Of a stretch of 64,000 nt of DNA, positions 4,311 to 51,794 are shown piece after piece. This DNA is from a virus. The stretch's first letter is position 1, and each line of letters starts with the position of its first letter. The stretch is taken from the IMG/VR virus record IMGVR_UViG_3300045391_003766, positions 5,395-69,394 of that record; one strand, 5' to 3'. The translations under genes and the position numbers were made by a program. The notes under the pieces were generated by a model. It saw nothing but the letters and a program-made list of their open reading frames with translations, did not search any database and was not told the origin of the DNA.

Positions 4311-4320
4311 CACTGTTTAC
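4311..4320 (+). promoter_or_regulatory. Late motif CACTGTTTAC
   Basis: Exact copy, 4 nt before ATG 4325. Confidence 0.6.
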
Positions 4321-4324
4321 TCGA

Positions 4325-4387
4325 ATGCAGATTGAACAGCAATACCGTTCAACACGGAGCCGAAAGGAGAACGATATGTGTAATTAA
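4325..4387 (+). CDS. Possible 20-aa leader peptide (MQIEQQYRSTRSRKENDMCN)
   Basis: ATG 4 nt after the late motif. Contains AAGGAG-6 nt-ATG TGT AAT TAA in the same frame. Confidence 0.3.
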   Translation: MQIEQQYRSTRSRKENDMCN

Positions 4388-4427
4388 ACCTCTGACCATT
4401 GTTGATCAAAAATCTTAATTGTTACTG

Positions 4428-4459
4428 TCACCCCATCCTGTCGATGGGGTGATTTTTTT
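4428..4459 (+). terminator. Rho-independent terminator
   Basis: TCACCCCATC-ctgtc-GATGGGGTGA, a 10-bp stem followed by T7. Confidence 0.8.
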
Positions 4460-4496
4460 ATGTCTTTTAGAGCATCGGGGGCTGCACTACTTGGTA

Positions 4497-5000
4497 GTGA
4501 AAGTATTCACCTACTACGACTCGACACCGACCGCGCCCCCGAATCAGGCCGAACTGATCCGCGTTTGGGCGCATAGTTGGGAAGCGCAAGGCTGGACTCC
4601 CCGGCTTTTAACCGTCCGGCACGCAAGAGCGTCCCGTCTTGGCAGCGTATGCGCCAAGCTGTCCTGCGATTGGATTGCGGCGCTCGAATACCACGGCGGC
4701 GGGTTCTTTTGTTCGCCCAACATCATCAATTTTTCTTTTCCCGGCAAAGAGGCGTTTCTACGAGCGCCGAAGCGGGATGCTCGATTTTTCAGCGCCGGAG
4801 AATTCATCGGCCTTGCGTGGATTCCGCGTGGAGACATCGACCGGGTGGTGAATCGCGGGCCGTCGTCTGTCCAAACATGGCCCGGCATTTGCACACATCA
4901 CCGAGAGCCGGGCTGGGAGACCTCGAAGCTGGTGCATTTCGATTCGGACTTCACGTTGCAACAAATCCTCGACTGCGGGCGGCGAATTTCCTTATGCTGA
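4497..5000 (+). CDS. GT-A-like protein, paralog of 14277..14948, DxD motif absent
   Basis: VFTYY...LIRVWAHSWEAQGWTPRLL matches VYTYY...LIKVWARSWRKHGWNPVVL. GTG start at 4497 inferred from this alignment. Confidence 0.6.
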   Translation: MKVFTYYDSTPTAPPNQAELIRVWAHSWEAQGWTPRLLTVRHARASRLGSVCAKLSCDWIAALEYHGGGFFCSPNIINFSFPGKEAFLRAPKRDARFFSAGEFIGLAWIPRGDIDRVVNRGPSSVQTWPGICTHHREPGWETSKLVHFDSDFTLQQILDCGRRISLC

Positions 5001-6931
5001 CGGGCGGATACAAAGACCTCGCGATTGAGTCCTCCCGGCTGATCCATCTGGGCGACCGGGCCGGAGCCGCCGAAACAATTAACCGCTGCCTCGGCCTCGG
5101 CGTGAAGGGCGACTTTGACAGGCCCGACAAACACATGCCGGTGATCCAGACCTTCCTCCACTACATGCTTAATGAGAACGGCATGGAAGAAGCCGCCGCG
5201 ATGCTGTGGACGCCCACGCAATTTACCTCGGAGCCCCAATATACTAAAGACCTCTGGAAGCTGTTTGATGAGACCAACGCGGGGTTGATCATGGGTGCAG
5301 CATCGTGCTCGAAATCCTATGGCATCGGCGTCCGGCTGTTTCTCGAATGGATTCGCGATCCTGAATACACAACCATCAAGGTGATCGGCCCAAGTGAAGA
5401 GCATCTTGAGCAGAATTTATTTTCGCACTTGGTCAGTCTTCACAACAGCGCCACGCTCCCCATGCCCGGCGAAGTCGGAGAACTTTTCATCGGCCTCGAC
5501 CGGCGAGACATGGTGTCGTCTATCAAGGGTGTCATCATCCCCGTGGGGAAAGTCAAAAAGGCCGGACGGTTGCAGGGCGCGAAACGGAAGCCGCGCATCA
5601 AACCGCATCCGATCTTCGGCCCGCTCTCGCGCATGTTCGTGTTCATCGATGAAATTGAAAACGTGCCGGGCGGGCTATGGTCCGACATCGACAACGTGTT
5701 CTCGAACATTGGCGATGACGTTCACGGCCTAAAGATTTTCGGCGCATACAACCCCACCAACATGAGCGACGAAGTGGGCAAGCGCGCGGAGCCGCTTTTT
5801 GGTTGGGAAAACTTCGATCCCGACAAACACTTTCGATGGAAGTCGAAGCGTGGATGGGAAGTTCTCCGGCTCGACGGGGAGAAATCGGAAAACGTCGTTC
5901 AGGGTAAAGTTATATTTCCGGGATTGCAAACGCGCGCGGGCCTCGAACAGATTGCGCGCAACGCGGGCGGGAGAAACTCGCCGGGATATTTTTCGATGGG
6001 TCGCGGCGCGTATCCTCCGCAGGGCATCGAACTGACCGTCATTCCTCCGGCCATGTTCTACAAAATGCGCGGAGAGTTTATCTGGTATGAAGCGCCGCAG
6101 CCAACGTCCGGGTGCGACGTGGCGCTTGAAGGCGGAGACGCGGCCAGCTATTCGTTGGGCCGGTGTGGTTGGGCAACCGGAATGAAGCTGCCGCCGTCGA
6201 TTGATTTTCCGAATGGCCGGACGGTGATGTTCAAGTCCCCGAAGGGCCGCGTGGTGCCGCGCTGGGGCGTGCAGCTTGATCAACAATTTTCGTTGGAGAA
6301 GGGGGACACGCCTCACATGAAAAACGGTGTGCTTAATGTCACGAAGCGCGCCGGGGTGAAGCCGGAATATTTTGCAATCGACCGAACGGGCGTCGGCGCG
6401 GGTGTGGCGGATTTGATCAAGGACGAATGGTCTCGTGCGATCCACGACATTAACTATTCTCAAGCCCCAAGCACGGACAAAATAATGACCGAGGACTCCA
6501 TGACGTGCGATCAAGAGTATGATCGAATTTGCTCGGAATTGTGGTTTATGACACGCGCATATGCGGAGTTTGGCTATCTGCTCATCGCGCCATCGGTGGA
6601 CATCGCGGAGTTGTCGCAGCAGGTGACGCAGCGCCGATACCGGGCCGCAGGAAAAACGAAGAAGGTGGAAGCCAAGCGAGATTATATGTCGCGCGGTTAC
6701 AAATCACCGAATGAAGCAGATTCGCTCACGCTCATGATCTACGCGGCGCGCAAAGGCTCCGGCATCACTCCAAGTATGACGGGCGAGTCGGTGCGCGGGC
6801 CGGACAACGACGGCGGGCTCGACGATGATTGGTGGACTTCCCGGTATCCGGGCGGCGTCATCATCGATCCGACCAACCGGGCCGACGTTCTTGACGAGAG
6901 TGCCTCTGAGGATCACTTTTTATCGACATGA
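4994..6931 (+). CDS. terL: Terminase large subunit
   Basis: Divergent Walker A GAASCSKS, Walker B FVFIDEIE, and RNase H-like nuclease motifs GCDVALEGGD, FAIDRTGVG, SPNEADSL. Start placed at ATG 4994. Confidence 0.85.
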   Translation: MLTGGYKDLAIESSRLIHLGDRAGAAETINRCLGLGVKGDFDRPDKHMPVIQTFLHYMLNENGMEEAAAMLWTPTQFTSEPQYTKDLWKLFDETNAGLIMGAASCSKSYGIGVRLFLEWIRDPEYTTIKVIGPSEEHLEQNLFSHLVSLHNSATLPMPGEVGELFIGLDRRDMVSSIKGVIIPVGKVKKAGRLQGAKRKPRIKPHPIFGPLSRMFVFIDEIENVPGGLWSDIDNVFSNIGDDVHGLKIFGAYNPTNMSDEVGKRAEPLFGWENFDPDKHFRWKSKRGWEVLRLDGEKSENVVQGKVIFPGLQTRAGLEQIARNAGGRNSPGYFSMGRGAYPPQGIELTVIPPAMFYKMRGEFIWYEAPQPTSGCDVALEGGDAASYSLGRCGWATGMKLPPSIDFPNGRTVMFKSPKGRVVPRWGVQLDQQFSLEKGDTPHMKNGVLNVTKRAGVKPEYFAIDRTGVGAGVADLIKDEWSRAIHDINYSQAPSTDKIMTEDSMTCDQEYDRICSELWFMTRAYAEFGYLLIAPSVDIAELSQQVTQRRYRAAGKTKKVEAKRDYMSRGYKSPNEADSLTLMIYAARKGSGITPSMTGESVRGPDNDGGLDDDWWTSRYPGGVIIDPTNRADVLDESASEDHFLST

Positions 6932-7500: not shown

Positions 7501-7760
7501 AAATTAAGAAATCCGTTACCTATCGATTTAATTGCCCGGCTTGTGGCAACGCTCATGTGTTCAACGACTCGTGGACGGTGGAAGGCTCGCCGGACAAGCC
7601 CACAGTTAAACCGTCAATAAGAGTTACAGGATGGCACGAAACTCATGGCGGCAGAGACTACGTTTGCCATGTAAATATAAAGGAAGGAATGATTCATTTT
7701 GAGGACGATTGCACGCACCCGTTTAAAGGACAAACCGTCCCGCTTCCAGAACTTATATGA
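7497..7760 (+). CDS. DUF6527-like metal-binding protein
   Basis: CPACGNAH...PTVKPSI...CH...DCTHPFKGQTVPL pattern recognised from memory. Confidence 0.6.
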   Translation: MKIKKSVTYRFNCPACGNAHVFNDSWTVEGSPDKPTVKPSIRVTGWHETHGGRDYVCHVNIKEGMIHFEDDCTHPFKGQTVPLPELI

Positions 7761-8014
7761 AAATTCCCAATCCTTTTCGATTCGCGGTGTCCATGCTGAT
7801 CATGGTATGGTGGAAGCTGCGCGGGTATGAAGTGCTGGCCACGGAAGAAAATTTCACTGACCGGACGTTCAAGTGTCTTTCGTGTCCGTTCTATGACGAG
7901 ATTTTCGGGCAGTGCAAAGTTTGCTCGTGTTTTATCGGCGCGAAAGCCCGGCTGAATCACGAGAAGTGTCCCAAGAATCGATGGGGTCGCCTTTACATTA
8001 AGCGCCCGGTCTAA
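7757..8014 (+). CDS. Cys-rich small protein (DUF6171-like)
   Basis: CLSCP...CKVCSCFIGAKARL...KCPKNRW. Confidence 0.55.
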   Translation: MKIPNPFRFAVSMLIMVWWKLRGYEVLATEENFTDRTFKCLSCPFYDEIFGQCKVCSCFIGAKARLNHEKCPKNRWGRLYIKRPV

Positions 8015-8024
8015 CACTGTTTAC
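8015..8024 (+). promoter_or_regulatory. Late motif CACTGTTTAC
   Basis: Exact copy, 2 nt before the portal ATG at 8027. Confidence 0.7.
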
Positions 8025-8026
8025 CG

Positions 8027-10126: not shown

Positions 10127-10138
10127 CGATGAACACCG

Positions 10139-10459: not shown

Positions 10460-10462
10460 CCT

Positions 10463-14948: not shown

Positions 14949-15136
14949 CAACTGGCGAGATTGCAAGACCGATTCGGGAAATCTTGTGGCGGCACGCGCC
15001 GGAGTTTCTCGACGCGAAGGTTGAAATTCTGGCGACTGACATTGCTCGATACATTGAACAGCTTGTCGAAAGAAATCGCGCCAACGTGGAAAAACCTTGG
15101 AGTGACGTTGACACAGCCGATCCCGGTTTACACTGA
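14945..15136 (+). CDS. Hypothetical protein
   Basis: 63-aa ORF overlapping the upstream stop. Confidence 0.45.
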   Translation: MTTGEIARPIREILWRHAPEFLDAKVEILATDIARYIEQLVERNRANVEKPWSDVDTADPGLH

Positions 15137-15263
15137 TTGCTGAGCTTAAACCACTCGGAACTGCTCAATCCGAGACGGCCTACCCGCTGATGGCCACAGC
15201 GACAAACGCGGTCAAGACGATTCTTGACAACGGCAAACAAAGAGACGCCGTGCGTAAGTCTCT
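15135..15263 (+). ncRNA. Candidate structured 5' leader RNA of the MCP gene
   Basis: Three pseudoknot-compatible stem pairs and a 7-bp hairpin found by eye (see findings). Confidence 0.45.
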
Positions 15264-15281
15264 GGTTAGAAAAATCTTTTT

Positions 15282-17301: not shown

Positions 17302-18770
17302 TGGCCTTACTTGGAAACAGGACGTTTGGTGCCACGAGGGCATATCACACAACGCGCGCCCGTTCTACGCGATCCCGCGCAACGCGGAGAGATTATCATC
17401 CGGTTGTGCTGGACTGGCTCGCGCGCGTAACCCAAGTGGGCGGGACTGTCTCTGACACGATCCTCGGTTATCATAACGACTTTGTTTATGCCTTGGAGCG
17501 AGCGGGGATTGTTGACAAAATTTGGCGTTTAAACACCTTTAGCGGCGACAGTTTTACGTCTGCTCTCGTTCCGCTAATTCGTCGATATGGTAATGCCGCC
17601 GATCATTCGTTCGGATTTGTTTCCGGGAACTGGACTGCCGTGGATGGCTTGAAGGGAGATGCCGCGACGACCCAGTTGCGAACCGGGATCATGGATTCGG
17701 CGGTGAATGTCGCCGATCTTTCGTTGATTTTCGCCGGGAAATCTTTTGAGCAGACCGCGACTACCAACACTGCCATTGGCGCGCTCACGGGTAGCACTAG
17801 CCCGCAGATCAGTTTGCATGTTCGCCGGACCACGAACCCAAATGCCCCCGCGTTCGCCGCCGCCAGTTTCGGAAGCGCTAACAAGGAACTAGGATTCGCG
17901 GCGACCCATTCACAGGGATTTATTTCTGGTAGTTGCACGTCCCTCGGCCCCATGCGGGTTTATTTTCAGGGCAATCTCGAAAACAATCAAGTGGCCGGAA
18001 CAAATAGAACCGCGCCAACCACGTCCTCAGCCAGAGACTTCTATGTTTTCTCGCGCAACTTCGGAGCCCCCTACGACACCGGGACGGCCTGCTATGGACA
18101 TTTATATAGTATTGCACTCGGCCTGACTGATGACCAGATGTGGGATTTCTTCAATGCTTTCTATACGCTCAACGTTTCGTTAGGCCGGGAAGCACTCGTT
18201 TCTTTTCTGTCGTGCTGGGGTGATTCATTGACAAGCGGAACTGGGGGTTCTCCATTTCCTTTGCAGATGTTTCCTTTGGGAGCGGCGAACCGGGCGATCT
18301 ATAATGGCGGCGTTGGCGGAGAAGATTCCAGCCAAGTGCTTGCGCGTTTTACGGCCAGCACTCGCCGGGCGGATCAAGTCACGACGATTTGGGTGGGACA
18401 ACACGGAACGGACTACACCAATCCAACGCTGTGTATGTCGAACATCGCGGCGATGGTCGCGCATTTGACGACTTCCAAGTTCGTCATCTTGACGGCGCTC
18501 AATGACGCGGTGACTCAGCCGATCAACACCACGGGATACAATCAGATTCAGGCGCTTAATGCCCTGATCACTTCGACATACCCGAACAACTCCCTCGACA
18601 TCCGCGCGTATCTGCTGACTCAAGGCGATGGAGGCGCAACGGATAACGCCGATGTTGCGAATGGAGTCACTCCTACGTCATTGCGTTTTGATTCACTTCA
18701 CTTGAACACTTTGGGATATTCCAAAGTGGCGTCCCGCGTTCAAACTTTTCTGACAGCTAAAGGCTGGTGA
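17301..18770 (+). CDS. Virion protein with beta-sandwich region and C-terminal SGNH/GDSL esterase
   Basis: WGDSLT (block I), GVGGEDS (block II) and DSLHLN (DxxH block V). Confidence 0.75.
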   Translation: MALLGNRTFGATRAYHTTRARSTRSRATRRDYHPVVLDWLARVTQVGGTVSDTILGYHNDFVYALERAGIVDKIWRLNTFSGDSFTSALVPLIRRYGNAADHSFGFVSGNWTAVDGLKGDAATTQLRTGIMDSAVNVADLSLIFAGKSFEQTATTNTAIGALTGSTSPQISLHVRRTTNPNAPAFAAASFGSANKELGFAATHSQGFISGSCTSLGPMRVYFQGNLENNQVAGTNRTAPTTSSARDFYVFSRNFGAPYDTGTACYGHLYSIALGLTDDQMWDFFNAFYTLNVSLGREALVSFLSCWGDSLTSGTGGSPFPLQMFPLGAANRAIYNGGVGGEDSSQVLARFTASTRRADQVTTIWVGQHGTDYTNPTLCMSNIAAMVAHLTTSKFVILTALNDAVTQPINTTGYNQIQALNALITSTYPNNSLDIRAYLLTQGDGGATDNADVANGVTPTSLRFDSLHLNTLGYSKVASRVQTFLTAKGW

Positions 18771-19072: not shown

Positions 19073-19677
19073 CAATGAAAATTCACCTACACTACATCGC
19101 GTGCGCGTTGCTGGCGCTCGGCTGCGGCTGCGGCATTCTTCCGCTTAAGGGCGGGAAGCACGCCATCAAAACGACGGACCTTAGCAGCACTCTAACACAG
19201 CCCCAGAACCCCAAAGATGCGTCCACGCAGGAATACGACCGCGTGATCGAGGATGCGATCCCGGTCAGGCCCGGCGACAAGGTTGACGGCGTGGAAATCA
19301 AAGAAGCCACGGTGATCCATCGAAAGACAACCGAGCACGTCTCGGCTAAAGTCGGCGCGTCCCAAAAGGACACTGCCCGCGAGGCGGCGGCAAAGCTGGC
19401 GTCCCTCCGGCCTGTTGTCTGGGTTGGCATTCTGCTTTTCATTGTCGGCGCGGCCTCTGCGGTTTATCCTCCGCTCAAAGTCCTCGTCGGCAGCATCACG
19501 ACCAGCGCGGTTGTCGCCGTCGCAGGTCTCGCGCTTATTGTCCTGCCGTCTCTCGTGGTTGGAAACGAAATCCTGATTATGTGTGTCGGCGTTGGCGGCG
19601 CGGGTCTTTACTTTTTCGCGCACCGTCACGGGCATCTGAAAGGCCAACTTACGGCGATGCTCGAAAAGAACAAGTGA
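19069..19677 (+). CDS. Lipoprotein-like membrane protein, spanin candidate
   Basis: N-terminal lipobox-like LLALGC, soluble middle region, about three C-terminal hydrophobic helices. Confidence 0.5.
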   Translation: MTMKIHLHYIACALLALGCGCGILPLKGGKHAIKTTDLSSTLTQPQNPKDASTQEYDRVIEDAIPVRPGDKVDGVEIKEATVIHRKTTEHVSAKVGASQKDTAREAAAKLASLRPVVWVGILLFIVGAASAVYPPLKVLVGSITTSAVVAVAGLALIVLPSLVVGNEILIMCVGVGGAGLYFFAHRHGHLKGQLTAMLEKNK

Positions 19678-19696
19678 CTCATCGTCGGATTTTCGG

Positions 19697-19706
19697 CACT
19701 GTTTAC
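19697..19706 (+). promoter_or_regulatory. Late motif CACTGTTTAC
   Basis: Exact copy, 5 nt before ATG 19712. Confidence 0.7.
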
Positions 19707-21668: not shown

Positions 21669-22336
21669 TGCAAGCCTTCATCATTAACCCGTTCATGTCG
21701 TTTCCGACGGTTCTTAATCCACCGAGTTTTCCGAATTTGCAAGGCTGGTGGAAAGCCGACAGCCTTTCCTTGAACGACGGAGACCCCGTTACAACGTGGG
21801 CCGATTCGTCAGGAAACGGCCAGACCTTGACGGCCAGAGCGACATCCACGTATCACACAAATATAGCGGGCTCGATGCCCGCCGTTACGGTTGGAGGGGG
21901 ATTTACTTTTCCCGGAATTACGCTATCGAGCGATTTCAGCATCGTGTCGGTTTTGAAAATTGCTTCGGACAGCATGTTGTTAGGAAATCAGACGGTAAAT
22001 CGTCAGGTTCGAGTGGATCGTAGCAACGGAAACACCCTTTCTTTTTACGCGGGCGGTTCAGAAATTATCAGTAGTTCCTTCACTATGGCGAACGTCCTTC
22101 TCGCCCTCGCGTGGCGCAGGGCGTCCTCTACTCTTTCTTTTCGTCAGAACAAGACCGCTGAGGGAACCGGCTCGGATGGAAACAGCTTGACCCTGAATCT
22201 GGTTGGGGACACTAGCTTCGGACTCGGATATAACGGGTATCTTATGGAGCTATTCATCTATTCGTCAGCACTGTCAGACTCAGACGTTGACCTGCTTTAC
22301 GATAGCTATCTACAAATAAAGTGGGGCTTGCCGTAA
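21668..22336 (+). CDS. LamG/concanavalin-like fibre tip protein (putative)
   Basis: IINPF start, LQGWWKADSL...VTTWADSSGNG, YNGYLMELFIYSSALSDSDV. Confidence 0.65.
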   Translation: MQAFIINPFMSFPTVLNPPSFPNLQGWWKADSLSLNDGDPVTTWADSSGNGQTLTARATSTYHTNIAGSMPAVTVGGGFTFPGITLSSDFSIVSVLKIASDSMLLGNQTVNRQVRVDRSNGNTLSFYAGGSEIISSSFTMANVLLALAWRRASSTLSFRQNKTAEGTGSDGNSLTLNLVGDTSFGLGYNGYLMELFIYSSALSDSDVDLLYDSYLQIKWGLP

Positions 22337-22350
22337 GCCCTGAAAAACAA

Positions 22351-22360
22351 CACTGTTTAC
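22351..22360 (+). promoter_or_regulatory. Late motif CACTGTTTAC
   Basis: Exact copy, 3 nt before ATG 22364. Confidence 0.7.
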
Positions 22361-26958: not shown

Positions 26959-27780
26959 ATGGCATCGACACTCCAAGCAACCAGCTTAATTCTCGAAATC
27001 GCCCGACTGTCCACGACGTTCAAAGGGACGCCGCAGCAGCTTGTTGATGAAATTCTTTCTCGCGCGCGAATCGTTTCGCCGACTGGGACCGGATTCATTT
27101 TTACCGGCGATACCGAACCGACTTCCAACGTAGGTCCGTGGCTCCGGGGAGGCACGAAATGGTATGTGTGGGACGACGCCACGAAGCGATACAAGCCGCT
27201 CGACATTAGCGACAGCGAAACCAAGTGGTTTCATGTCGGAGCGTCAACGCCAGCGACGAGCGATCCGCCCGTGTGGCTCCGAACTACGCACGATCAAACC
27301 GAAGCGGACCCTTCAATCGGCGATCCGTTGGGCTGGTATGTATTCAATGGAACAGGATGGGTGCCGATCAGTGGCATCCCTCGCTCTGGTGGAACGGCCA
27401 GTCGTCCTACGAGCCCCATTGAGTTTCAACAGTTCTACGATTCGGACATCTCGTGCCTTCTTTGGTGGGAGCGCGGTGCGTGGAGAACCGTCTCCGGCGT
27501 GCCGGGCGACATCAAATTCGTCGGTCAGACGACCCTTTCCGCCGCGTTGACTCAAAATCCGGGGTGGGCGCTGTTCGGCGCGAGCAACTCAGCCCTCCGT
27601 GGACGATATTTTGTCATGGCAGCGAAGGACAGCGCGGGAACAGACCTCACGGTATCGCCCAACGTGGCCAAACGCCAGCCCTATGAGACCTTCGGCGAGA
27701 CAGATGGTGTGAAAATCGATGGCACGAGCCCAGTTCCATACCCTCCGTCCATCGGTATGTTTGCTCTGATCAAAGAGTAA
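26959..27780 (+). CDS. Tail fibre/needle-associated protein (putative)
   Basis: Trp-rich repeats (WYVWD, WYVFNG, WRTVSG). Start placed at in-frame ATG 26959. Confidence 0.5.
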   Translation: MASTLQATSLILEIARLSTTFKGTPQQLVDEILSRARIVSPTGTGFIFTGDTEPTSNVGPWLRGGTKWYVWDDATKRYKPLDISDSETKWFHVGASTPATSDPPVWLRTTHDQTEADPSIGDPLGWYVFNGTGWVPISGIPRSGGTASRPTSPIEFQQFYDSDISCLLWWERGAWRTVSGVPGDIKFVGQTTLSAALTQNPGWALFGASNSALRGRYFVMAAKDSAGTDLTVSPNVAKRQPYETFGETDGVKIDGTSPVPYPPSIGMFALIKE

Positions 27781-27802
27781 CGACAAAACAGCCCAAAACA
27801 CA

Positions 27803-27812
27803 CACTGTTTTC
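27803..27812 (+). promoter_or_regulatory. Late motif variant CACTGTTTTC
   Basis: 9/10 match, 8 nt before ATG 27821. Confidence 0.6.
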
Positions 27813-29991: not shown

Positions 29992-31635
29992 ATGGCTGGA
30001 ATTAACGATGAAAGCGGACGGCTGGGACCAATAAACCCGGCGAGCCTTGTTACCCCAGCGTCACCCGTCGTAACGCCAAGCAGCGTTGCTGCACTGTCTG
30101 ACGCTTTTCGTAACGGCATCATCACTGCGGACGACATTCTCAATCGCGCTGGTGAACTTGGTCGCGCCAAGCGAAAAGCAGAAATTGCCGTTGCCGGAGC
30201 ACAAGGCCAAGTCGCCACAGAAGCAGTCTCTCCTGAAGCTATCGCGGGCCGCAGTGCCGAGTTGGCGGCGCACACACAACTTGCCCAAGAAACTGCTTCT
30301 CCTGAAGCTGTTCAAGCACGCAGAACTGCGCTGACTGCCGCGAGTGCAAACGCAGAATTGCAGCAAGCCTCAGCCACACATGGCCCGGAGGCGATACAAG
30401 CTTTTTTCAAATATGCTCCGCTCGTTCAAGGATACGACGGTCCTCCTAAGAGGGCGGACGGAAGTCTCGACTGGGATTTGATCGGCAAAGAGGGCGCGAA
30501 TTTGGATCGACAAGCTACGGTTAAAGCCCAAGCGTCACTACGCGGCGCGGAGGCGAAACGGCTCTCTGAAAAAGACGAGACGACCGGCGCAACTTACGAA
30601 CGGATTTTCAACGCTTTGGGAGAAGACATTACAAACCCAGACGTGCGCGCGGCGCACACTCGCGCCGCAACGGCCCCGTTTTCTTTTCTCAGCATTAAGC
30701 CCGGCGCTGTCGCTCCATCGGCTCCTTCCGCACCTGCGGCATCGGCTCCGGCACCTACTGCACCCGCTCCGGCTCCTGCGTCACCGCCCCAGACTCTTTA
30801 CGGCACGGACGCACAAGCTGCTGCTGATGCAGCGGAACGCGCAGCGCAAGGGCAAGGACAGCCACAGATTGCTCCATCTCCGGCAGTGACTCCAATGGCG
30901 TCCGCGACTCCGGCTCAACCTGCCGTAGCGCCACGCGCGCCCGTTCCCGCACAGAAGCCAGAAATTTCTCTTGCTCCGCCGCACGCGGTTGGAGAATTCG
31001 TCCCCGGTCGCGGCATTGTCACCGGCGCAGGCCCGACGATGGCCAGCAAAGGGGCATCCGAACTTCGCGGCGAGATTGCTCGAAACCCAGTCATTCAGGA
31101 AGTCCAGAAAGCGCTTCCTCAATATGGCCAGCTTCAGCAAAGCGAGCGCGAACTGTCAAATCCCAATTTTCAACCAGATCGAATTTTCGATTTACGTCTC
31201 GCATTTAATTATTTCAAGTCGCTACACCCGGAGACTCGTGTTACTGAACAGAACTTCAAAGAACTGGAAAAGTTCACTAAGATTTACGCGAATGATATTC
31301 CGCAGACTTTGAAAAATTCTTTCAACGTCCTGACGCGGCAGCAATACCTCGACCCTATGGCCCGGCAAGCAGTGCTTCGCGAAACTCGCGCGGCTCTGCA
31401 AGGGCAGGTGGACGCGGCTCGGCCCGTGCTGGAATCCTACGCTACTCTGGCCGATCAATCTGGCATCCCCCGCGAGGCCGTGCTCACAAAAGAATGGCAA
31501 GACCTGCTCAACACCCAAATGGTCAAACCGGGGCAACCGGGACAACCAGCCGCGAGCAACAATACTCCCGTGATGCAGATTCAGGGCATCGGCGGGATTC
31601 AAAAAGTAAACGGTCGCTATATTCGGGTCAACTAA
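29992..31635 (+). CDS. Internal virion / ejection protein (putative)
   Basis: Start placed at ATG 29992 (MAGINDESG). Ala-rich with a long Pro/Ala linker. Confidence 0.55.
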   Translation: MAGINDESGRLGPINPASLVTPASPVVTPSSVAALSDAFRNGIITADDILNRAGELGRAKRKAEIAVAGAQGQVATEAVSPEAIAGRSAELAAHTQLAQETASPEAVQARRTALTAASANAELQQASATHGPEAIQAFFKYAPLVQGYDGPPKRADGSLDWDLIGKEGANLDRQATVKAQASLRGAEAKRLSEKDETTGATYERIFNALGEDITNPDVRAAHTRAATAPFSFLSIKPGAVAPSAPSAPAASAPAPTAPAPAPASPPQTLYGTDAQAAADAAERAAQGQGQPQIAPSPAVTPMASATPAQPAVAPRAPVPAQKPEISLAPPHAVGEFVPGRGIVTGAGPTMASKGASELRGEIARNPVIQEVQKALPQYGQLQQSERELSNPNFQPDRIFDLRLAFNYFKSLHPETRVTEQNFKELEKFTKIYANDIPQTLKNSFNVLTRQQYLDPMARQAVLRETRAALQGQVDAARPVLESYATLADQSGIPREAVLTKEWQDLLNTQMVKPGQPGQPAASNNTPVMQIQGIGGIQKVNGRYIRVN

Positions 31636-31650
31636 GGCCGGATAAAGCCA

Positions 31651-31660
31651 CACTGTTTAC
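31651..31660 (+). promoter_or_regulatory. Late motif CACTGTTTAC
   Basis: Exact copy, 6 nt before ATG 31667. Confidence 0.7.
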
Positions 31661-38326: not shown

Positions 38327-38517
38327 AAATTGTTGCATCTATCGCACACATTAAGAGTCTCCCGGAGACGGAGAAACAGGAAATGCTCGCCAGCGCCCGC
38401 ATCGCGGACTATAGGCCGGGCGAACAAGAATTTTGGGCTGAAGTTGAGGCCCGGATGAAGGTCCGGGAAAATCAAACCGCCGACCGGGTTGTGCCTCGCC
38501 CCGGCAAGAAGCACTAA
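38323..38517 (+). CDS. Hypothetical protein
   Basis: 64-aa ORF overlapping the giant gene's stop. Confidence 0.45.
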   Translation: MKIVASIAHIKSLPETEKQEMLASARIADYRPGEQEFWAEVEARMKVRENQTADRVVPRPGKKH

Positions 38518-38524
38518 TTACCGT

Positions 38525-39184: not shown

Positions 39185-39335
39185 CAGCGACGAAATGCCG
39201 CCAATGCTCGCGGCGATGCTTTTCTTCTTGCCATTTCTGGACGGCTTTGTGCCATTCATCGCGCGAAATGCTTGGGTCTGGACAACTGTTGCAGAGCAGA
39301 GTCTCCGCCCAATCGAGTAGGTCTTGTTTTTTCAT
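39156..39335 (-). CDS. Hypothetical 59-aa protein (not in the ORF track)
   Basis: MKKQDLLDWAETLLCNSC...; ATGA overlap with the phosphoesterase stop. Confidence 0.4.
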   Translation of the reverse strand: MKKQDLLDWAETLLCNSCPDPSISRDEWHKAVQKWQEEKHRREHWRHFVAAIRRVLRSN

Positions 39336-40567
39336 AATACCGGGAAACCAGCCGGAATGTTGTAAGGAGCCGGGCCGTCCATTTTCGCCTTGGCGAGATT
39401 CAAGTCATAGCACGCCGACCTGCCAAACGTCGGATGGACGAAAAAGAATTTCTGGATCGGACTGCATGGTGTGAAGCTATTCGTCAGTCCGAATTCATCC
39501 ACGCCGGGGAACCCGCCGTTCACAATCACTTCGCCGAGCGCGTGCGGGATTTCCATAGGCCGGTGAAGATGGCCGAGCAGATAATAGTTTACACCGGGCC
39601 GTTCATGCTTGACTCGGATTTGCGTTGTGGCACTGATAGCCCGGCCAATGGAATGAGCGGGAATGCCCAAGGCTTTGTCTCCGCCTCGCAGATGGTCGCC
39701 ATGCGCCGCCAAAAAAGTAAAGCCCTGAACCTTGAACTCAGCAAAGGGCTGCTGGTCGAGCCGGAATTTAATCGTCGGGATGTCCCGGACCAAAGCTTCG
39801 ATGTAGGCATACAAAAATTGATCGAGATTGCTGAAACGGTTTTTTGTCGGCATCTTGTGTTGCGTTCCCCAGCGCGGATGATTGCCGACGCAGGTGTAAA
39901 CCCGGATGCTGGGAACGAGCGTGGACAGATTGCGAAGGAATTGCGCGAGCGCGTGTCCGGCACCGTAGAACTGATTGAAGAGCGTGTTGACCTGACCGCA
40001 CTCTGCCGCGTGTTGCAGCGCGCCATCGATCATGTCCCCGATCATCGGGATCACCAGTTCCGAAATTTTCGTTGTGGTGTGGTCTTGAAGGATCGAGGCT
40101 GCGCTGTCCTCAAGGCGTTTCAACCGGCGACAGAAAACGTCGAAATTGTATTCACCGAATCCGAGGGTCTGCTCTGCTCGGACCTTGGCCCCAACGTGAG
40201 TGTCGGAGAGCAGTAGCACGGCGCTTTGCGGGCTACTCGTGCCTTTGGCAACGTGTTGACGGCAGGCTGGGGCCGGAGAATAGGAAATTGGTGCGATGTC
40301 GCGGACCTGTTCGATCAACACTTCGGTCGCGGTGCTGCCCTTTTGGGCCTTCTCAATTTCCCGCTCTAACTTCAGCGCGCGGTCGCGCCAATAATCCACG
40401 GTGGGATCAGCCGAAGCCTCAGCGACGGGTAAACGTTCAAGATGCCGTTCCACCGCTCGGACGGTTTTTCCGAGTATTGCGGCGATTTCGCGCCGGGGGA
40501 CTTTGGCTGCTCTCAGTTCCTTGAGCCGGGAGATTTCCTGTTCCGTCCACTGCTGATTCTTGTTCAT
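39332..40567 (-). CDS. Calcineurin-like metallophosphoesterase with N-terminal HTH
   Basis: SDTHVG, GDMIDG, GNHPR, HGDH and GHLH motifs; N-terminal WTEQEISRLKEL...REIAAILGKT HTH. Confidence 0.85.
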   Translation of the reverse strand: MNKNQQWTEQEISRLKELRAAKVPRREIAAILGKTVRAVERHLERLPVAEASADPTVDYWRDRALKLEREIEKAQKGSTATEVLIEQVRDIAPISYSPAPACRQHVAKGTSSPQSAVLLLSDTHVGAKVRAEQTLGFGEYNFDVFCRRLKRLEDSAASILQDHTTTKISELVIPMIGDMIDGALQHAAECGQVNTLFNQFYGAGHALAQFLRNLSTLVPSIRVYTCVGNHPRWGTQHKMPTKNRFSNLDQFLYAYIEALVRDIPTIKFRLDQQPFAEFKVQGFTFLAAHGDHLRGGDKALGIPAHSIGRAISATTQIRVKHERPGVNYYLLGHLHRPMEIPHALGEVIVNGGFPGVDEFGLTNSFTPCSPIQKFFFVHPTFGRSACYDLNLAKAKMDGPAPYNIPAGFPVL

Positions 40568-41147
40568 GTGTTTTTTGTTTTGGTAATTCGGGGGGAAGTT
40601 GATCGTTTTGAAAAGCGGTCTCACGCTGCGTCATCCATTCGAGAATGTGTGCAGGCAGGTGGCCCTCGAAAAGCATATCGAAGGCTTTGATTGCTTTGGC
40701 CGGGCAGTCGCCGATGCCAATGAGCGCGTTCTCCAAGTCCTCAACGGTGCCAAGAATGGCGATCCACATGCCGTCAGGAAGTTTTCGGAGCGAAGGCCGG
40801 TATCGAGAGTGCGGAGCAAGGGCTTCCTCGTGGATGGCAACTTGCTTGGCGATGAGTTGAGTGTTCTGATCATACATTTTGGTCAGCGTCGCTTCGAGCG
40901 TGTCTTGATGAACCATTGACCATCGGTCTTTTTCTTCCATCAAAGTGTCGATTCGATTACACACGTTGATGAGCGTTGCTTCGACAGCCGATTTTGCACC
41001 GCCGTCTAATATACCACCATTCTGCTCATCCAAGCCCTGAATCTGAAATAAAAGTCCGCCCATTGTGGCCGCAGTGCTCAACAACGATTCGAGTTGCGCC
41101 CGCGTGATGGAATCCCGGTTCGGCAAAGGTGTTTTTATTGGTGTCAT
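40437..41147 (-). CDS. Hypothetical protein
   Basis: Helical N-terminal part; the C-terminus overlaps the next gene by about 130 nt. Confidence 0.5.
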   Translation of the reverse strand: MTPIKTPLPNRDSITRAQLESLLSTAATMGGLLFQIQGLDEQNGGILDGGAKSAVEATLINVCNRIDTLMEEKDRWSMVHQDTLEATLTKMYDQNTQLIAKQVAIHEEALAPHSRYRPSLRKLPDGMWIAILGTVEDLENALIGIGDCPAKAIKAFDMLFEGHLPAHILEWMTQRETAFQNDQLPPELPKQKTHEQESAVDGTGNLPAQGTESSQSPPARNRRNTRKNRPSGGTAS

Positions 41148-41699: not shown

Positions 41700-42401
41700 T
41701 TAACTATTAAATAGTCTCCCATTTTTCATCAACGCGCAACGCACCTTTTTGAGCGCGCGGACATGGGTGAATTGAATAGCGCTGCGCGATACGCCCAGCA
41801 TCTTGCCGATTTTGCTGAAGTCGAATCCGCCGCGATAGAAAAGGTCGAGGACCATTTTTTCCTGATCGCTAAGTTCGCGGTCAATCACGTCCTTCACCAT
41901 TGCCCAACGTTCGCGCAGATCGATGGCATCGAATTCTGGTTCAACCGCAAACGTGCCAGCGCAAACGTCGTTAAAACAATCCTCTAAACGAATAGGCGAC
42001 GCCAACACCGAGTCGCCTAAAAATTCTCCGACTTCTCCAATTTCACGACTGGATTGCATAGAAACTGTAACTCCATTTTTTACCGTGTCTCTTGCCCGCC
42101 ATGCGCGAGAAATCTCGCCCCGAATGTAGGGCTTGGCGTAACCCATGAATCGCGACTTGGCGAACCGATGGTTGCGCTCCGGCTTGTAGTTATTCGCCGC
42201 GTGGCGCACCGCAGAGTAAGCGAGACTGAAAAGTTCGTCGTCCGGCAGGAGGCTCCGGCTGACTCCCTTCGCGTAATAAAACGCATCGCGCATCGTATGC
42301 AGGACCAGCTTCTCGCGGCCTTTTTCGGTGCGGGCGCAAGCAATTTCTTGGGCTATGGTGAGCTTCGCTTCCGGGAGCGACGATAGTAGGGTTGGATTCA
42401 T
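41700..42401 (-). CDS. Phage RNA polymerase sigma factor (sigma70 regions 2 and 4)
   Basis: Region 2-like ELFSLAYSAVRHAANNYKPE...FMGYAKPYIRGEI and region 4 LSDQEKMVLDLFY...FSKIGKMLGVSRSAI. Confidence 0.85.
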   Translation of the reverse strand: MNPTLLSSLPEAKLTIAQEIACARTEKGREKLVLHTMRDAFYYAKGVSRSLLPDDELFSLAYSAVRHAANNYKPERNHRFAKSRFMGYAKPYIRGEISRAWRARDTVKNGVTVSMQSSREIGEVGEFLGDSVLASPIRLEDCFNDVCAGTFAVEPEFDAIDLRERWAMVKDVIDRELSDQEKMVLDLFYRGGFDFSKIGKMLGVSRSAIQFTHVRALKKVRCALMKNGRLFNS

Positions 42402-46610: not shown

Positions 46611-46621
46611 AGAAACTTTGG

Positions 46622-47823: not shown

Positions 47824-47828
47824 GCCTC

Positions 47829-47856
47829 AATGTAGCACAAGACGTTTAAACGTCAA
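47829..47856 (-). promoter_or_regulatory. Sigma70-type promoter TTGACG-16 nt-TACATT with palindromic operator
   Basis: TG extension present; -10 ends 5 nt before ATG 47823; the 14-bp palindrome GACGTTTAAACGTC (47841-47854) overlaps spacer and -35. Confidence 0.7.
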
Positions 47857-47860
47857 AGTA

Positions 47861-48040
47861 TTATTTTTCCAGAGCCAGCAAGAGGACAAGGAAGACCAAC
47901 AAAACAATGATTGCAGGAAGCCACAAAGGCGCGAAGACCCACAGCCACGACCACTTAACTACGCCACAGAGTTTGAGAACGAGGAATGTGACAAACAGCA
48001 CGCCGCCGAGTCCGATACCGCCTGATGAAGAATTTTCCAT
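47861..48040 (-). CDS. Small two-TM membrane protein (59 aa, not in the ORF track)
   Basis: MENSSSGGIGLGGVLFVTFLVLKLCGVVKWSWLWVFAPLW..., the GGIG...LKL.G...WSW.WV..P.W pattern common in phages. Confidence 0.7.
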   Translation of the reverse strand: MENSSSGGIGLGGVLFVTFLVLKLCGVVKWSWLWVFAPLWLPAIIVLLVFLVLLLALEK

Positions 48041-48052
48041 ATTTTTATTTTA

Positions 48053-48094
48053 CCGGGCGGGCGGATTCGCGTATAGCGGGAGACGCCCGCCCGG
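48053..48094 (-). other. GC-rich hairpin (processing, stability or terminator element)
   Basis: CCGGGCGGGCG...CGCCCGCCCGG 11-bp stem with inner pairing; no U tract on the coding strand. Confidence 0.5.
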
Positions 48095-48109
48095 CTTGGG
48101 TTGGGCAGG

Positions 48110-48958
48110 TTATTGTGCCGGTTGAGTCAGAAACGACTTGATGAAGTCGAGAATCGCGGGCGACGTTTTGGGACCGGGAACGAAAACCGGGTTCCAGTAG
48201 GTGCTGTTCCCTTCCGGCGCTTTTTCAGTGCGGCTGGAAACTTGGAACTGAACCGTTGCGATGCCGTCCCGGAGGTAGCCGAGAATGCGATTCGTGTTGA
48301 TGACTTTCTTGACGACCGCCGTATAAGCGGAGCCTTTCATCGCCCAGAGAGCGAGGGCATACTTTTTGCCGTCAATGTCATAGATGAAGGTGTTGCCGTC
48401 ATCCGTGCAGATTTCCGGGCGCTCAACGAGCACGAGCATGTCCGACATAAACTCGAACCGGCGCATGCCGTCCGCCTTTTTCAGATTCCATTCTTTGTAG
48501 TCCGTGGTGCCGCCCATCGCGCGGACTTCTTCCTCGGTGTTGCAGATTGCTCCGCGATCACCACCGGGAAGTTTTTCCACGAAGCGAGTTGGCCGCTTTC
48601 CACAGACAACCATGTTGACCGGGAGCGATCCTTTCTTTTTCACGGTGTTCGTTTTCGCGTCGATGAGAGTCGGCTCGAAAATGATCAGGCTCTGTCCATG
48701 AATCAGCGCGCCGGACGGAAAAGAATCTTTCAGGATGCCCGTGTTCTGCACCAAATTGATGCGGGGCATGATGATGTCCTTGAAGTCCGGGATGTTGTCA
48801 CCGAGTCCGAAGCCGGTAGGCGCAGGCACGCCAACAGGAGCAACGACAGCGGGGACGCCGACAGCGCCGGGTGCTGGATCGGGCGTGACGGTGGCTTGGG
48901 TTTCGAGTGTGGGAACTGTGGTTGCTCCGCTAGGAGAGCCGAATGATACTTCTGGCAT
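48110..48958 (-). CDS. Single-stranded DNA-binding or annealing protein (putative)
   Basis: MPRINLVQ motif and OB-like beta composition; position between nuclease and polymerase. Confidence 0.5.
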   Translation of the reverse strand: MPEVSFGSPSGATTVPTLETQATVTPDPAPGAVGVPAVVAPVGVPAPTGFGLGDNIPDFKDIIMPRINLVQNTGILKDSFPSGALIHGQSLIIFEPTLIDAKTNTVKKKGSLPVNMVVCGKRPTRFVEKLPGGDRGAICNTEEEVRAMGGTTDYKEWNLKKADGMRRFEFMSDMLVLVERPEICTDDGNTFIYDIDGKKYALALWAMKGSAYTAVVKKVINTNRILGYLRDGIATVQFQVSSRTEKAPEGNSTYWNPVFVPGPKTSPAILDFIKSFLTQPAQ

Positions 48959-48990
48959 AACGTTTTATTTCGTTAGTTGTTTTGGTTTGT

Positions 48991-49383
48991 TTACTTGTTG
49001 TGTCCCGGATTGCCCACTTGCCCCGGAGGGACAAAGGAACTGGACGACCCGGAAGATGATGCCGACGCAGCAGAGGCAGCAGAGGCAGACGATTCCCCGT
49101 TGCCGGAGACCGTGACGGACGAGCGCGCAGGCCGGAGCAACGCGGACGCACCGACGTTACCGCCAGCGCCGACAACCGCAGTTGCGATGCCGGGGCCGGT
49201 CGCTGACGTAAGGTAGTTGATACCCTCCGGCGTTTGAACCGCGATCACCGCGACGTTCGGGCCATTGAGACTTTGCTCGTGGATGGAATAATATTTGTTC
49301 TCTCCGATGTTTCCAATGTGGTGAACATTGGACACGCAACCGATCAACGGAAGCGCTAGGAGCAGGTGAAGGAATTTTTTCAT
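48991..49383 (-). CDS. Lipoprotein
   Basis: MKKFLHLLLALPLIGC lipobox; Ser/Ala-rich tail. Confidence 0.65.
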   Translation of the reverse strand: MKKFLHLLLALPLIGCVSNVHHIGNIGENKYYSIHEQSLNGPNVAVIAVQTPEGINYLTSATGPGIATAVVGAGGNVGASALLRPARSSVTVSGNGESSASAASAASASSSGSSSSFVPPGQVGNPGHNK

Positions 49384-49387
49384 GTGT

Positions 49388-50602
49388 TTATTGTTTTGGT
49401 GTTTCAGAGGATGATTTCTCCGAAGTGACGCGGAGAAAAGCGTAAGGCTCGCCTTGGACGACAGCGCCACTATCGATCAGAGCCTTCTTGAAAAGTTCAA
49501 CCGTGGCCTTTTTCTGGCCGCGCGGCGACTTCTCGCTAATTTTTTCTTCGACGCCGCCGAATTCGATGGAGAGAGTCGAATCAAATTCTTCTTTCGTGAG
49601 GAAGCGAAGCGCTTCAGACTTGAACTTATCCGAGTCCACCACCGAACGGCGGGAAGACGTAGTGATGTGGTATCCGGGGGGACACTGTGCAGCGCCGCGT
49701 AACACGCGATCTGTAACCTGAGTGCGAAAAGAACCACTCCACGTCTTCATAAGGTCCGCGAGTCTCATTGCGAGCGCGGTTTGATCGGGGGCCATTACCT
49801 TGTTGGGCGAAATGTCGTCCGGGAGACCGACAGGGTAAAACTTTTTTCCAACGTGACACGCGAACGCGGCAACCTTCGGGCAGATGCCAAGGTTAGCGCA
49901 GAAGTTGCAGGCCGGGACCATTGGGTTCGCCATCGACCAATCGCCAGCCTTCGCGAGAGCGCGGGCTTGGCGAGCGCGAGCGACGACGGTTTGGACGCGC
50001 AGGAAAAGCGCGGGGATGTCTTTGCGCTCGAAAGTCGCTGACGTAAGAGAGCCAATCAGCGGTTGCTTGAAGAAAAACGTCACCCTTTGCAGGTGCAAAT
50101 AGTGACGCATCAGGCCGATGGTGTAGGCGATGCCCTGAAGATTGTTTTCGGCGCTCTCCACCGGCCACATACCGAACTTCCAGTCGAAAAGTTCTGCTTC
50201 CGCACCCCAGACGAGCGCGCGGTCCACGTAGCCCGCTGTCGTCGCTACCACCTTGCCATGCACCACGTCGTCGAACACACAGTCATCGGCACGCAAATAG
50301 GTTTCCCGCAGTTCGACGATTGGGGGAACGCCGGTTCGCCGAATCAACTCTTGGGCTCGGCGATCTTCCATCAACGTTTTTCGACGGTCGTAAAAGTCGA
50401 TACACTCCGCTGCCGCAGCAGAGTCATCATCGGCCAGCCGGTTATCGTCCTCGCGCGTATCGGTGACTTCATGCGCGATGGTGCCGATGATGGTTCGGAC
50501 ATGCTGGCTATCTTTGCTGAGATAGCAAGGGCAGGCTTCTAAGCTTTGCAGGCTGGAAGGGGAATAAGGGTGATGAACCCGTTGTTCGATTTGTTCACTC
50601 AT
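49388..50602 (-). CDS. PD-(D/E)XK exonuclease, DUF2800/Cas4-like
   Basis: HHPYSPSSL...CP, GTIAHE, GYVDR, FDWKFG, CNFC...CP. Confidence 0.8.
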   Translation of the reverse strand: MSEQIEQRVHHPYSPSSLQSLEACPCYLSKDSQHVRTIIGTIAHEVTDTREDDNRLADDDSAAAAECIDFYDRRKTLMEDRRAQELIRRTGVPPIVELRETYLRADDCVFDDVVHGKVVATTAGYVDRALVWGAEAELFDWKFGMWPVESAENNLQGIAYTIGLMRHYLHLQRVTFFFKQPLIGSLTSATFERKDIPALFLRVQTVVARARQARALAKAGDWSMANPMVPACNFCANLGICPKVAAFACHVGKKFYPVGLPDDISPNKVMAPDQTALAMRLADLMKTWSGSFRTQVTDRVLRGAAQCPPGYHITTSSRRSVVDSDKFKSEALRFLTKEEFDSTLSIEFGGVEEKISEKSPRGQKKATVELFKKALIDSGAVVQGEPYAFLRVTSEKSSSETPKQ

Positions 50603-50952
50603 TGGACGACGCTAAGGTTGTGAGATGATTTGTTCAGGAAGAAAAAATCCACAGTCTTGTTTTTAGACTTCGATTTGAAAACGAAGGCGGTAGAGTCCTC
50701 GCAAGACGCCTTATAGGGAGCGCGTAAAGTTATTCCCAACGTTGCTAGTATCGCCGAGATTTGTTTAACGTGGGCGTCCGTGAAGTCCTCCGAGCCTCGC
50801 GGGTAAATGTAGATGTCGAGGTCTTTATCAGAATATCCGGCCATTAAAACGCTACCGCCGAGGGCGCAGTGTGCTCTTGCCGGGATCAGGGCTTTTTCGA
50901 TCTGTCGGATCAGATCAATTGCTTCAACGAGTTCCCAAGTTCCGATTTTCAT
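50599..50952 (-). CDS. Pol beta-superfamily nucleotidyltransferase (minimal)
   Basis: GGSVLMAGYSDKDLDIYIY (hGS...DhD) with a third Asp in VDFF. Confidence 0.65.
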   Translation of the reverse strand: MKIGTWELVEAIDLIRQIEKALIPARAHCALGGSVLMAGYSDKDLDIYIYPRGSEDFTDAHVKQISAILATLGITLRAPYKASCEDSTAFVFKSKSKNKTVDFFFLNKSSHNLSVVQ

Positions 50953-51518
50953 ACCAAAGATTTTGGAGTGGCGTCGTTCTCAAGTGTGACCTTGAAAAGA
51001 GTCTGAGCGGCGGTGTGGTAGATCACGATGCCTTCCGGTTTCATAAATCCGGGCGCGGCCATGCTCCCAGACACACGCAAATTGTGTGCGGCATCCTCAA
51101 TTGAGCCTGTCGAGAAAGCGCCAGTGTAAAGCACCGGCACGACGCGACAGCACGCCGGGGGAACCTCAACAGTTGTCCAGCGGTGTGTGTTGAACAGAGA
51201 AAAATGTTTCTTCGTTTGGTCGTAGCGGCGTTGAATGCCCGCGCCCCACCATTCACCAAAATGTCGTCCGGGACCGAGTTTCAGCAACTCGTCGTGGTTT
51301 TCCGCAACCCAACGAGCAAAGCCGTAGTTGTCGTTCTCTGGCGTGATGAATCGAGAGCGTGAACCCGCGACTGCGTGCTTTCCGTCTTCGGTGATATACA
51401 CCTGTGCGTTGGTTCCGTCGATTTTTTCGGTGATAACGATTTCACGATTGAGTCGGGCCATTTTGGGGAAGCCCTCGAAGCAAATCACGTTATCAAAATC
51501 AGGAAGTGAGTCATTCAT
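50949..51518 (-). CDS. RNA ligase, Rnl2-like adenylyltransferase domain
   Basis: Motif I TEKIDGTN, motif III FGEWWG, FSLFN, motif IV PEGIV, motif V FKV. Confidence 0.85.
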   Translation of the reverse strand: MNDSLPDFDNVICFEGFPKMARLNREIVITEKIDGTNAQVYITEDGKHAVAGSRSRFITPENDNYGFARWVAENHDELLKLGPGRHFGEWWGAGIQRRYDQTKKHFSLFNTHRWTTVEVPPACCRVVPVLYTGAFSTGSIEDAAHNLRVSGSMAAPGFMKPEGIVIYHTAAQTLFKVTLENDATPKSLV

Positions 51519-51527
51519 TACGCATAC

Positions 51528-51555
51528 ACGGTATCACACTTTAGTTGGTGAACAA
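51528..51555 (-). promoter_or_regulatory. Sigma70-type promoter TTGTTC-16 nt-TACCGT
   Basis: TGTG extension; 9 nt before the RNA ligase ATG. Confidence 0.4.
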
Positions 51556-51583
51556 ACCGAATTCTGAAAATCGATGAGAATCC

Positions 51584-51778
51584 TTAGTAGGACTTCATCA
51601 CCTTCTTACGAAGAGCGTCTCGCGCGGGCGCACCTGTCGGTTTCCACCCGTGCTCAACTCCCCGGAGCAGGTTCATCTGACGCTTCGCCTTGGCGGGCGT
51701 GGTCGCTTTGGCTTTGATACCGTGGGGTGAACGAACTTGAACTTTTCCCTTGCCGACTGATTTTGAAGTATAAGGCAT
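51584..51778 (-). CDS. Small basic protein, probably late
   Basis: 64 aa, Lys/Arg-rich, preceded by the late motif. Confidence 0.65.
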   Translation of the reverse strand: MPYTSKSVGKGKVQVRSPHGIKAKATTPAKAKRQMNLLRGVEHGWKPTGAPARDALRKKVMKSY

Positions 51779-51784
51779 AAGCGA

Positions 51785-51794
51785 GAAAACAGTG
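51785..51794 (-). promoter_or_regulatory. Late motif variant CACTGTTTTC
   Basis: On the - strand, 6 nt before ATG 51778. Confidence 0.6.

Follow-up and report, generated by a model that had tools for sequence, protein, structure and literature searches.

Bacillus phage SPO1 encodes two successive sigma factors (gp28 and gp33/34) that replace the host sigma factor, recognize -35 and -10 words of their own and set up a temporal cascade, its messenger RNAs (mRNAs) carrying Shine-Dalgarno (SD) leaders. Phage T4 encodes gp55, which lacks region 4, recognizes the late promoter word TATAAATA, with no -35 box, and needs gp33 and the sliding clamp. The present analysis concerns 64,000 nucleotides of phage DNA (hereafter the window; bases 5395-69394 of the 72,895-bp IMG/VR record IMGVR_UViG_3300045391_003766, genome G000), in which the 10-mer CACTGTTTWC recurs immediately before start codons and a sigma70-family factor is encoded. 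The closest studied system appears to be coliphage phiEco32 gp36 and its middle/late promoters; the cryo-EM account of gp36 describes a two-domain phage sigma factor on the host core RNA polymerase, contacting both a -35 element and a non-canonical -10 element (PMC12276001).

As that account presents gp36, the factor encoded in the window resembles it in joining a sigma2-like N-terminal domain to a sigma4-like C-terminal domain and, by prediction, in serving the later genes of a lytic phage. The likeness noted is one of architecture, the factor described here being nearest to the group-3 sigmas (FliA, SigF, and RpoH). Compared to phiEco32, the -35 box is a canonical TTGACA, the putative promoters abut start codons, and no gp79-like partner was identified. 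SPO1 offers a similar logic, a phage sigma with bipartite promoters, although the promoter words differ, and T4 gp55 shares the general plan of a phage-encoded sigma-like protein and a short invariant word in the -10 region before late genes. An earlier note, made from the letters of the window, had likened the element to the gp55 type, with no -35 box; this comparison fails, since the sites have a TTGACA-like box at 17 nt and the factor has a sigma4 domain. We read the 10-mer as the -10 core of phage-specific sigma70-type promoters, which would be recognized by the phage sigma factor and would start late transcripts at or near the ATG (probability about 0.6); the broader proposition, that the sites sharing its ACT core are promoters, is very probably correct.

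CACTGTTTWC occurs seven times in the window, versus an expectation of 0.20 by dinucleotide shuffling (never more than 2 copies in 100 shuffles), and eight times in the whole genome, the eighth copy lying just beyond the window. The seven are exactly those listed in the earlier note, on the same strands, and its remark that an ATG follows within 2-8 nt extends to the eighth, all eight copies being oriented like the next gene. Seven of the eight ATGs start open reading frames (ORFs) of 64-2219 codons, the exception being ATG 4325 (20 codons). The equal frequency in coding DNA that the note had named as a counterargument is not observed: called ORFs cover 88.5% of the genome, and seven of the eight copies fall entirely in the remaining 11.5%. 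One-mismatch copies are at chance level (11 found, 6.2 expected), those away from starts being at 4042 (minus strand), 44491, 59676, and 63436. In addition, CACTGT is the top de novo hexamer in the 32 nt preceding starts, with nine such windows versus 0.69 expected (p = 4e-8). The looser copies proposed earlier all exist, and those at 15131 and 38512 show the upstream box at 17 nt; the CACTGTT abutting ATG 12638, with only 1 nt between hexamer and ATG, is too close to serve that start.

Relatives were collected with the capsid protein as query, which returned 78 IMG/VR loci at 37-92% identity, and 16 complete genomes (G000-G015, G000 being this phage) were assembled from the fetched loci. In G000, all eight sites match TTGACA best when the spacer is 17 nt (mean 4.25/6 versus 2.37 at random positions, p = 1e-5). 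Across the family, 79 start-proximal sites from 12 genomes, aligned on the hexamer NACTNN, give a mean TTGACA match of 3.10/6 at spacer 17 versus 1.1-1.8 at the other spacers from 10 to 24, and 51% of them, compared with 10% of random positions, match at least four of the six bases at spacer 17 (p = 1e-19). The sites thus have the two hexamers, 17 ± 1 bp apart, of sigma70-type bipartite promoters. The hexamer CACTGT carries A at position 2 and T at position 6 and is followed by a conserved TT(A/T)C; set at -12 to -7, NACTGT keeps the A at position 2, and the T at position 6 is found in the GT and AT variants. Between the end of the hexamer and the ATG, the distance is 6-12 nt in G000 and most often 6-8 nt in the family; 7 nt after the hexamer, 78% of the 79 sites have a purine and only one has C. 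Transcription is predicted to start about 7 nt after the hexamer; the resulting leaders in G000, of 0-6 nt, would make the late mRNAs leaderless or nearly leaderless, as the earlier note had suggested and as this geometry, taken alone, favors. Two other registers were tried and rejected: (i) nnCACT as the -10 hexamer, which gives a -35 spacing of 15 nt and a pyrimidine at the predicted +1 at all eight G000 sites; and (ii) TGTTAGATT of G001 as an extended -10, which places the start inside coding sequence, with a -35 spacing of 22 nt.

With six matches in 1.27 Mb, the exact 10-mer is no commoner than background in the relatives and thus appears private to G000; the element is not lost from them, each lineage instead building a word of its own around a common ACT core. 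The relatives display the core NACT(G/A)T with genome-specific flanks, and the lineage words comprise CACTGTTTWC (G000), GGTGACTGTTRGATT (G001), CACTRTTTAGAGAC (G003), GCACTGTTT (G004), AGAGACTAYT (G006), CTGACTATTA (G008), GGTAACTAC (G011), GGTAACTATCT (G013), and GCACTAAT (G015). In these nine genomes a hexamer containing ACT ranks first or nearly first among the words enriched before starts (p down to 1e-12), and cross-counting the extended words in the 16 genomes yields a nearly diagonal matrix. Each genome holds 9-11 invariant bases around the hexamer, and they change from one phage to another even at 82-92% capsid protein identity. The search of related genomes that had been proposed as a check therefore recovered the ACT core with lineage-private flanks.

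Amid otherwise unalignable spacers, the core is kept at the orthologous starts of (i) the 699-amino-acid (aa) virion gene, in G002-G005 and loci L056-L061; (ii) the 125-aa gene after the 22351 copy, in G001-G004 and many loci; (iii) the GNAT-like gene after the 27803 copy, in G001, G003, and G004; and (iv) the 64-aa gene, where TTGACA/TTGTCG-N17-NACTRT is kept in G001-G003, the four lineages showing TTGACA (TTGTCG in G002), the 17-nt spacer and CACTGT, GACTGT, or CACTAT. At the capsid gene, a TTGACA intact at all six positions stands 17 nt before the copy at 15131 (CACTGATTGC), and 39 of 50 distinct relatives carry TTGA[CT]N-N17-NA[CT].. 132-182 nt before the ATG, the G001 copy being a complete private lineage word; recurrence of the capsid promoter 8-mer elsewhere in the same locus is not significant. 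A -35 box exactly 17 nt upstream, together with capsid copies 130-180 nt from the ATG, indicates a promoter and not a translation signal. The earlier note had held a translational element in reserve; the choice of a promoter is well supported by the spacing, the capsid-upstream copies, the orthologous conservation and a geometry shared with the host-type promoters described below. Alone among the late genes, the capsid gene has a long leader (15141-15281 in the window; 125-180 nt over the whole family), which follows a strongly conserved TTGACR-N17 promoter, and hairpin-like words (gaagcc..ggcttc) recur in relatives.

The sigma70-family gene, already recognized in the earlier note, is confirmed by domain, PHROG and profile matches. 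Both domains expected of such a factor are found: sigma4 (PF04545) reaches 33.9 bits where the cut-off is 24.1 and is matched by 16 of 16 orthologues, and sigma2 (PF04542) scores 17.6 bits against a cut-off of 24 in the G000 protein and is matched by 7 of 16 (best 8e-8). The profile built from the 16 sequences matches FliA, RpoH, SigF, RpoS, and SigA down to 3e-20, with positions 15-140 matching RpoH, RpoS, and SigF, and the PHROG sigma factor family is matched at 4e-16 (residues 41-252). The AlphaFold2 model comprises two confident helical domains, 1-110 and 157-226 (the latter with pLDDT of about 95), joined by a disordered linker of some 40 residues, with no sigma3 domain, and every top Foldseek match of the model is a sigma factor. 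The gene lies at the distal end of the replication operon, its ATG one base after the primase-helicase stop, and no strong minus-strand terminator was found between the 51794 copy and the sigma gene. It is present in all 16 genomes and encodes the least conserved core protein checked, with 24-50% identity to G000, compared with 33-59% for the primase-helicase, 45-67% for the DNA polymerase and 68-92% for the capsid protein. When aligned, the orthologues vary in the region-2 segment and keep the region-4 recognition helix comparatively constant, just as the -10 flanks vary and the -35 box is conserved.

The sigma factor is also the sole promoter-recognition protein found. A phage-encoded single-subunit RNA polymerase was not detected, PF00940 having no six-frame match in the genome and none in the control genomes either, and the 709-aa neighbor of the sigma gene is a primase-helicase (DUF5906). 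A T7-like promoter, suggested by the resemblance of CACTAT..AGAGAC to CACTATAGGGAGA, was rejected on account of the missing PF00940 match, the identity of this neighbor and the -35 box at 17 nt. A phage-encoded reader fits the pattern of variation, because the sigma factor is present in all genomes and is the least conserved protein, as the -10 flanks are private; the earlier proposal that the phage sigma reads these promoters is plausible on this basis, that is, as the sole recognition protein found, kept in all genomes and evolving fast, as the -10 flanks do.

From these observations we infer the start sites, the timing and the role of sigma as reader. Host core RNA polymerase carrying the two-domain phage sigma would most likely engage the -10 hexamer CACTGT with the adjoining TT(A/T)C and a more or less degenerate TTGACA-like -35 box 17 bp upstream, starting about 7 nt after the hexamer, either at the A of the ATG or up to some 6 nt before it. 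Most late messages would then be leaderless or have a very short leader, the capsid gene, with a leader of about 140 nt, being the exception; leaderless messages fit a phage/host system that does not use SD sequences. Synthesized from the distal end of the replication operon, the sigma factor would switch transcription from host-type early promoters to the virion genes.

Several observations weigh against this reading. The sigma factor is tied to the promoters by circumstantial evidence. In the sigma tree, which is poorly resolved, and likewise in the polymerase tree, the motif types are distributed by clade, so that no covariation independent of kinship emerges. The -35 signal is absent in G004; four of the 16 genomes (G002, G005, G007, and G009) have no clear lineage word, although individual bipartite sites are still present in them; and the -10 word of the capsid promoter is often unlike the lineage word. 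The ATG itself supplies part of the purine signal at offset 7. Finally, the 4311 copy leads merely a 20-codon ORF and a terminator. It does not directly precede the packaging genes, and the labels "portal" and "tail" used in the earlier note were not confirmed, most G000 virion proteins having no Pfam or PHROG family match.

The promoters might instead be read by a host sigma factor, primary or alternative, perhaps with a phage activator, the phage sigma doing another job. We consider this unlikely, albeit deserving of attention, as a canonical TTGACA at the canonical 17-nt spacing and a hexamer with A at position 2 and T at position 6 could in principle be read by a host sigma, and two host-type promoters, TACACTGCTTAC (64921) and TACACTACTTTC (55143), hold near-copies of the 10-mer. 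On the other hand, the invariant bases that change between close phages point to a rapidly changing, phage-encoded reader, the -10 of the early arm is plainly of another type (TGnTAYAYT, spacer 16), and the sigma gene is kept in every genome. It is less probable still that the word is the binding site of some other phage regulator (an activator, a repressor or a factor that loads anti-termination) overlapping the -10 of a weak promoter: its lineage-private flanks do reach beyond a normal -10 hexamer, many small phage ORFs are unannotated, and the terminator after the 4311 copy loosely recalls late promoters controlled by anti-termination, but the word sits exactly at -10 relative to the -35 box, is not palindromic and occurs as a single copy per site, and the one helix-turn-helix (HTH) candidate noticed, a 430-aa exonuclease fusion, is missing from the motif-bearing G001 and G002. 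An action in RNA, as a translation-initiation enhancer, RegA-like operator or processing site before the start codon, would suit a word 2-8 nt from the ATG in an SD-less genome and a conservation that extends almost to the ATG in G001 and G003, but is very improbable given a -35 box useless to an RNA element, capsid copies far from the ATG with the private extension in G001, a distance to the ATG that varies from 2 to 16 nt, and the lack of any Rfam family at gathering score within the window.

Features of the G000 window discussed in the text (window coordinates; promoter assignments are predictions)
Feature	Coordinates	Strand	Elements and context
Promoter-like unit	4288..4320	+	TTGCAG (4288-4293)-N17-CACTGTTTAC (4311-4320); leads 20-codon ORF, ATG 4325, then terminator
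Intrinsic terminator	4427..4459	+	Strong; 11-bp stem, T7 run; ~105 nt downstream of 4311 copy
Degenerate copy	4485..4494	+	CACTACTTGG (CACTACT), 6 nt before GTG 4497 of GT-like gene heading packaging block
Probable promoter of the same class	6891..6923	+	TTGACG-N17-CACTTTTTAT, 4 nt before ATG 6928 (190-aa gene)
Predicted promoter	7992..8024	+	TTTACA-N17-CACTGTTTAC, 2 nt before ATG 8027 (699-aa virion gene)
Predicted major capsid gene promoter	15108..15140	+	TTGACA-N17-CACTGATTGC; ~140-nt leader, ATG 15282
Predicted promoter	19674..19706	+	GTGACT-N17-CACTGTTTAC, 5 nt before ATG 19712 (349-aa fibre-like gene)
Predicted promoter	22328..22360	+	TTGCCG-N17-CACTGTTTAC, 3 nt before ATG 22364 (125-aa gene heading virion block)
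Predicted promoter	27780..27812	+	ACGACA-N17-CACTGTTTTC, 8 nt before ATG 27821 (141-aa GNAT-like gene)
Predicted promoter	31628..31660	+	TCAACT-N17-CACTGTTTAC, 6 nt before ATG 31667 (2219-aa protein)
Looser copy	38489..38521	+	TTGTGC-N17-CACTAATTAC (38512), 3 nt before ATG 38525 (219-aa ORF)
Sigma70-family factor	41700..42401	-	233 aa from ATG 42401; sigma2 and sigma4 domains, disordered linker
Looser copy	41707..41739	-	TTGCGC-N17-GACTATTTAA, 8 nt before ATG of RuvC-like gene, at sigma gene 3' end
Host-type (early) promoter, example	47829..47856	-	TTGACG-16-(TGc)TACATT, 5 nt before ATG
Predicted promoter	51785..51817	-	TTGACA-N17-CACTGTTTTC, 6 nt before ATG 51778 (64-aa basic protein)

Together, the 4311 copy and the terminator at 4427-4459, which is the strongest of its region, would give an RNA of about 135 nt; beyond the terminator, the 4321-4462 transcript shows no remarkable folding (z = -1.4). 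The degenerate copy that follows is orthologous to CACTACT in G015 and to CACTGTT in G004, each located after a terminator, and the order terminator, promoter, gene recurs in G003, G004, G012, and G015. About 420 nt of the GT-like ORF (4497-5000) are shared, in a different frame, with a long ORF listed at 4577-6931. Relatives show homology to this long ORF from near its codon 140, which places the real start of this large packaging-block gene at about 4994. At the RuvC-like gene, G003 and G004 present full lineage motifs where G000 has the looser copy. The genes for the RNA-ligase-like protein, nuclease, polymerase, primase-helicase and sigma factor follow the 64-aa gene on the same strand; the 64-aa protein itself (51584-51778, minus strand), in the replication arm, is very basic (MPYTSKSVGKGK...), and no family match was found for it. 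Elsewhere on this strand, the 430-aa protein mentioned above (39332-40624) comprises an N-terminal HTH, with a D5-like regulator PHROG match and a weak Sigma70_r4_2 match, fused to an SbcD/Mre11-like phosphoesterase.

The host-type promoter class follows TTGACG/TTGTGT/TTGCGT-16-TGnTAYAYT, with -10 hexamers starting at 2240 on the plus strand and at 47834, 55143, 59949, 62569, and 64921 on the minus strand. These hexamers end 5-10 nt from the ATG, the same geometry as that of the ACT-core sites. SD-like 4-mers precede 8% of starts and 10% of random positions and are thus no commoner at starts, which indicates a phage that does not use SD sequences. The leaders of the early genes (47900-64000, minus strand) are C/A-rich and G-poor, with recurring AACTAA(C/T); ACTAAT is found in five windows of G000 (0.23 expected) and ACTAAC in eight of G003 (0.66 expected). 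Such leaders may act as unstructured, translation-enhancing leaders in an SD-less system. In addition, the palindrome GTTTAAAC occurs 10 times in the genome, compared with about 0.6 expected, and is similarly enriched in G001-G004; its copies in the window are at 17527, 21433, 26882, 35242, 36628, 43423, 47844, and 59960. Eight of the ten lie inside ORFs on both arms and two in the spacers of host-type promoters.

The ends of the G000 record overlap by 70 bp, which identifies it as a complete genome, circularly permuted or terminally redundant. Its plus strand encodes virion, packaging and fibre genes and its minus strand replication and recombination genes, including a helicase, a PD-(D/E)XK nuclease, the RNA-ligase-like protein, a family-A DNA polymerase, the primase-helicase, the sigma factor and a RuvC-like resolvase. 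Transfer RNA (tRNA) genes adjoin the packaging block in several relatives (L087:7046-7120 and L095:10833-11173), and genome bases ~3820-3895, outside the window, are also listed among the tRNA positions beside this block; G003 displays a tRNA-Met directly downstream of a lineage promoter copy, and G005 a tRNA-Met, a tRNA-Trp and one odd tRNA beside the packaging block. The capsid protein has no match among 50,697 phage records, and no relative of it was found in the search of genome contigs. Searches of sequencing runs with a 10-kb stretch and with the capsid gene returned no RNA run; the phage is present in DNA runs from soils. The best matches of the DNA polymerase and the sigma factor in cultured phages are below 29% identity, that of the sigma factor being to Bacillus phage Goe8 (28.6%).

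The phage strategy itself is familiar, and the soil phage family that employs it is unstudied: an uncultivated family of phages of about 70-75 kb each, represented by at least 78 IMG/VR contigs and without a cultured relative. What sets its promoters apart is a canonical -35 box at 17-nt spacing combined with a non-canonical -10 that has an ACT core and flanks private to each lineage. The analysis provides a testable transcription map, with host-type early promoters on the replication arm, ACT-core promoters on the virion arm and the sigma gene at the end of the replication operon. It is possible, though doubtful, that in this family, whose capsid proteins are 82-92% identical in most pairs, each lineage couples a private word around the ACT core to a fast-diverging sigma factor of its own, these sigma/promoter pairs being mutually orthogonal while sharing one host core polymerase and giving leaderless messages. 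If so, related phages that co-infect a cell would not cross-activate each other's late genes, and the pairs would be useful as synthetic-biology parts and for studying how promoters and sigma factors co-evolve.

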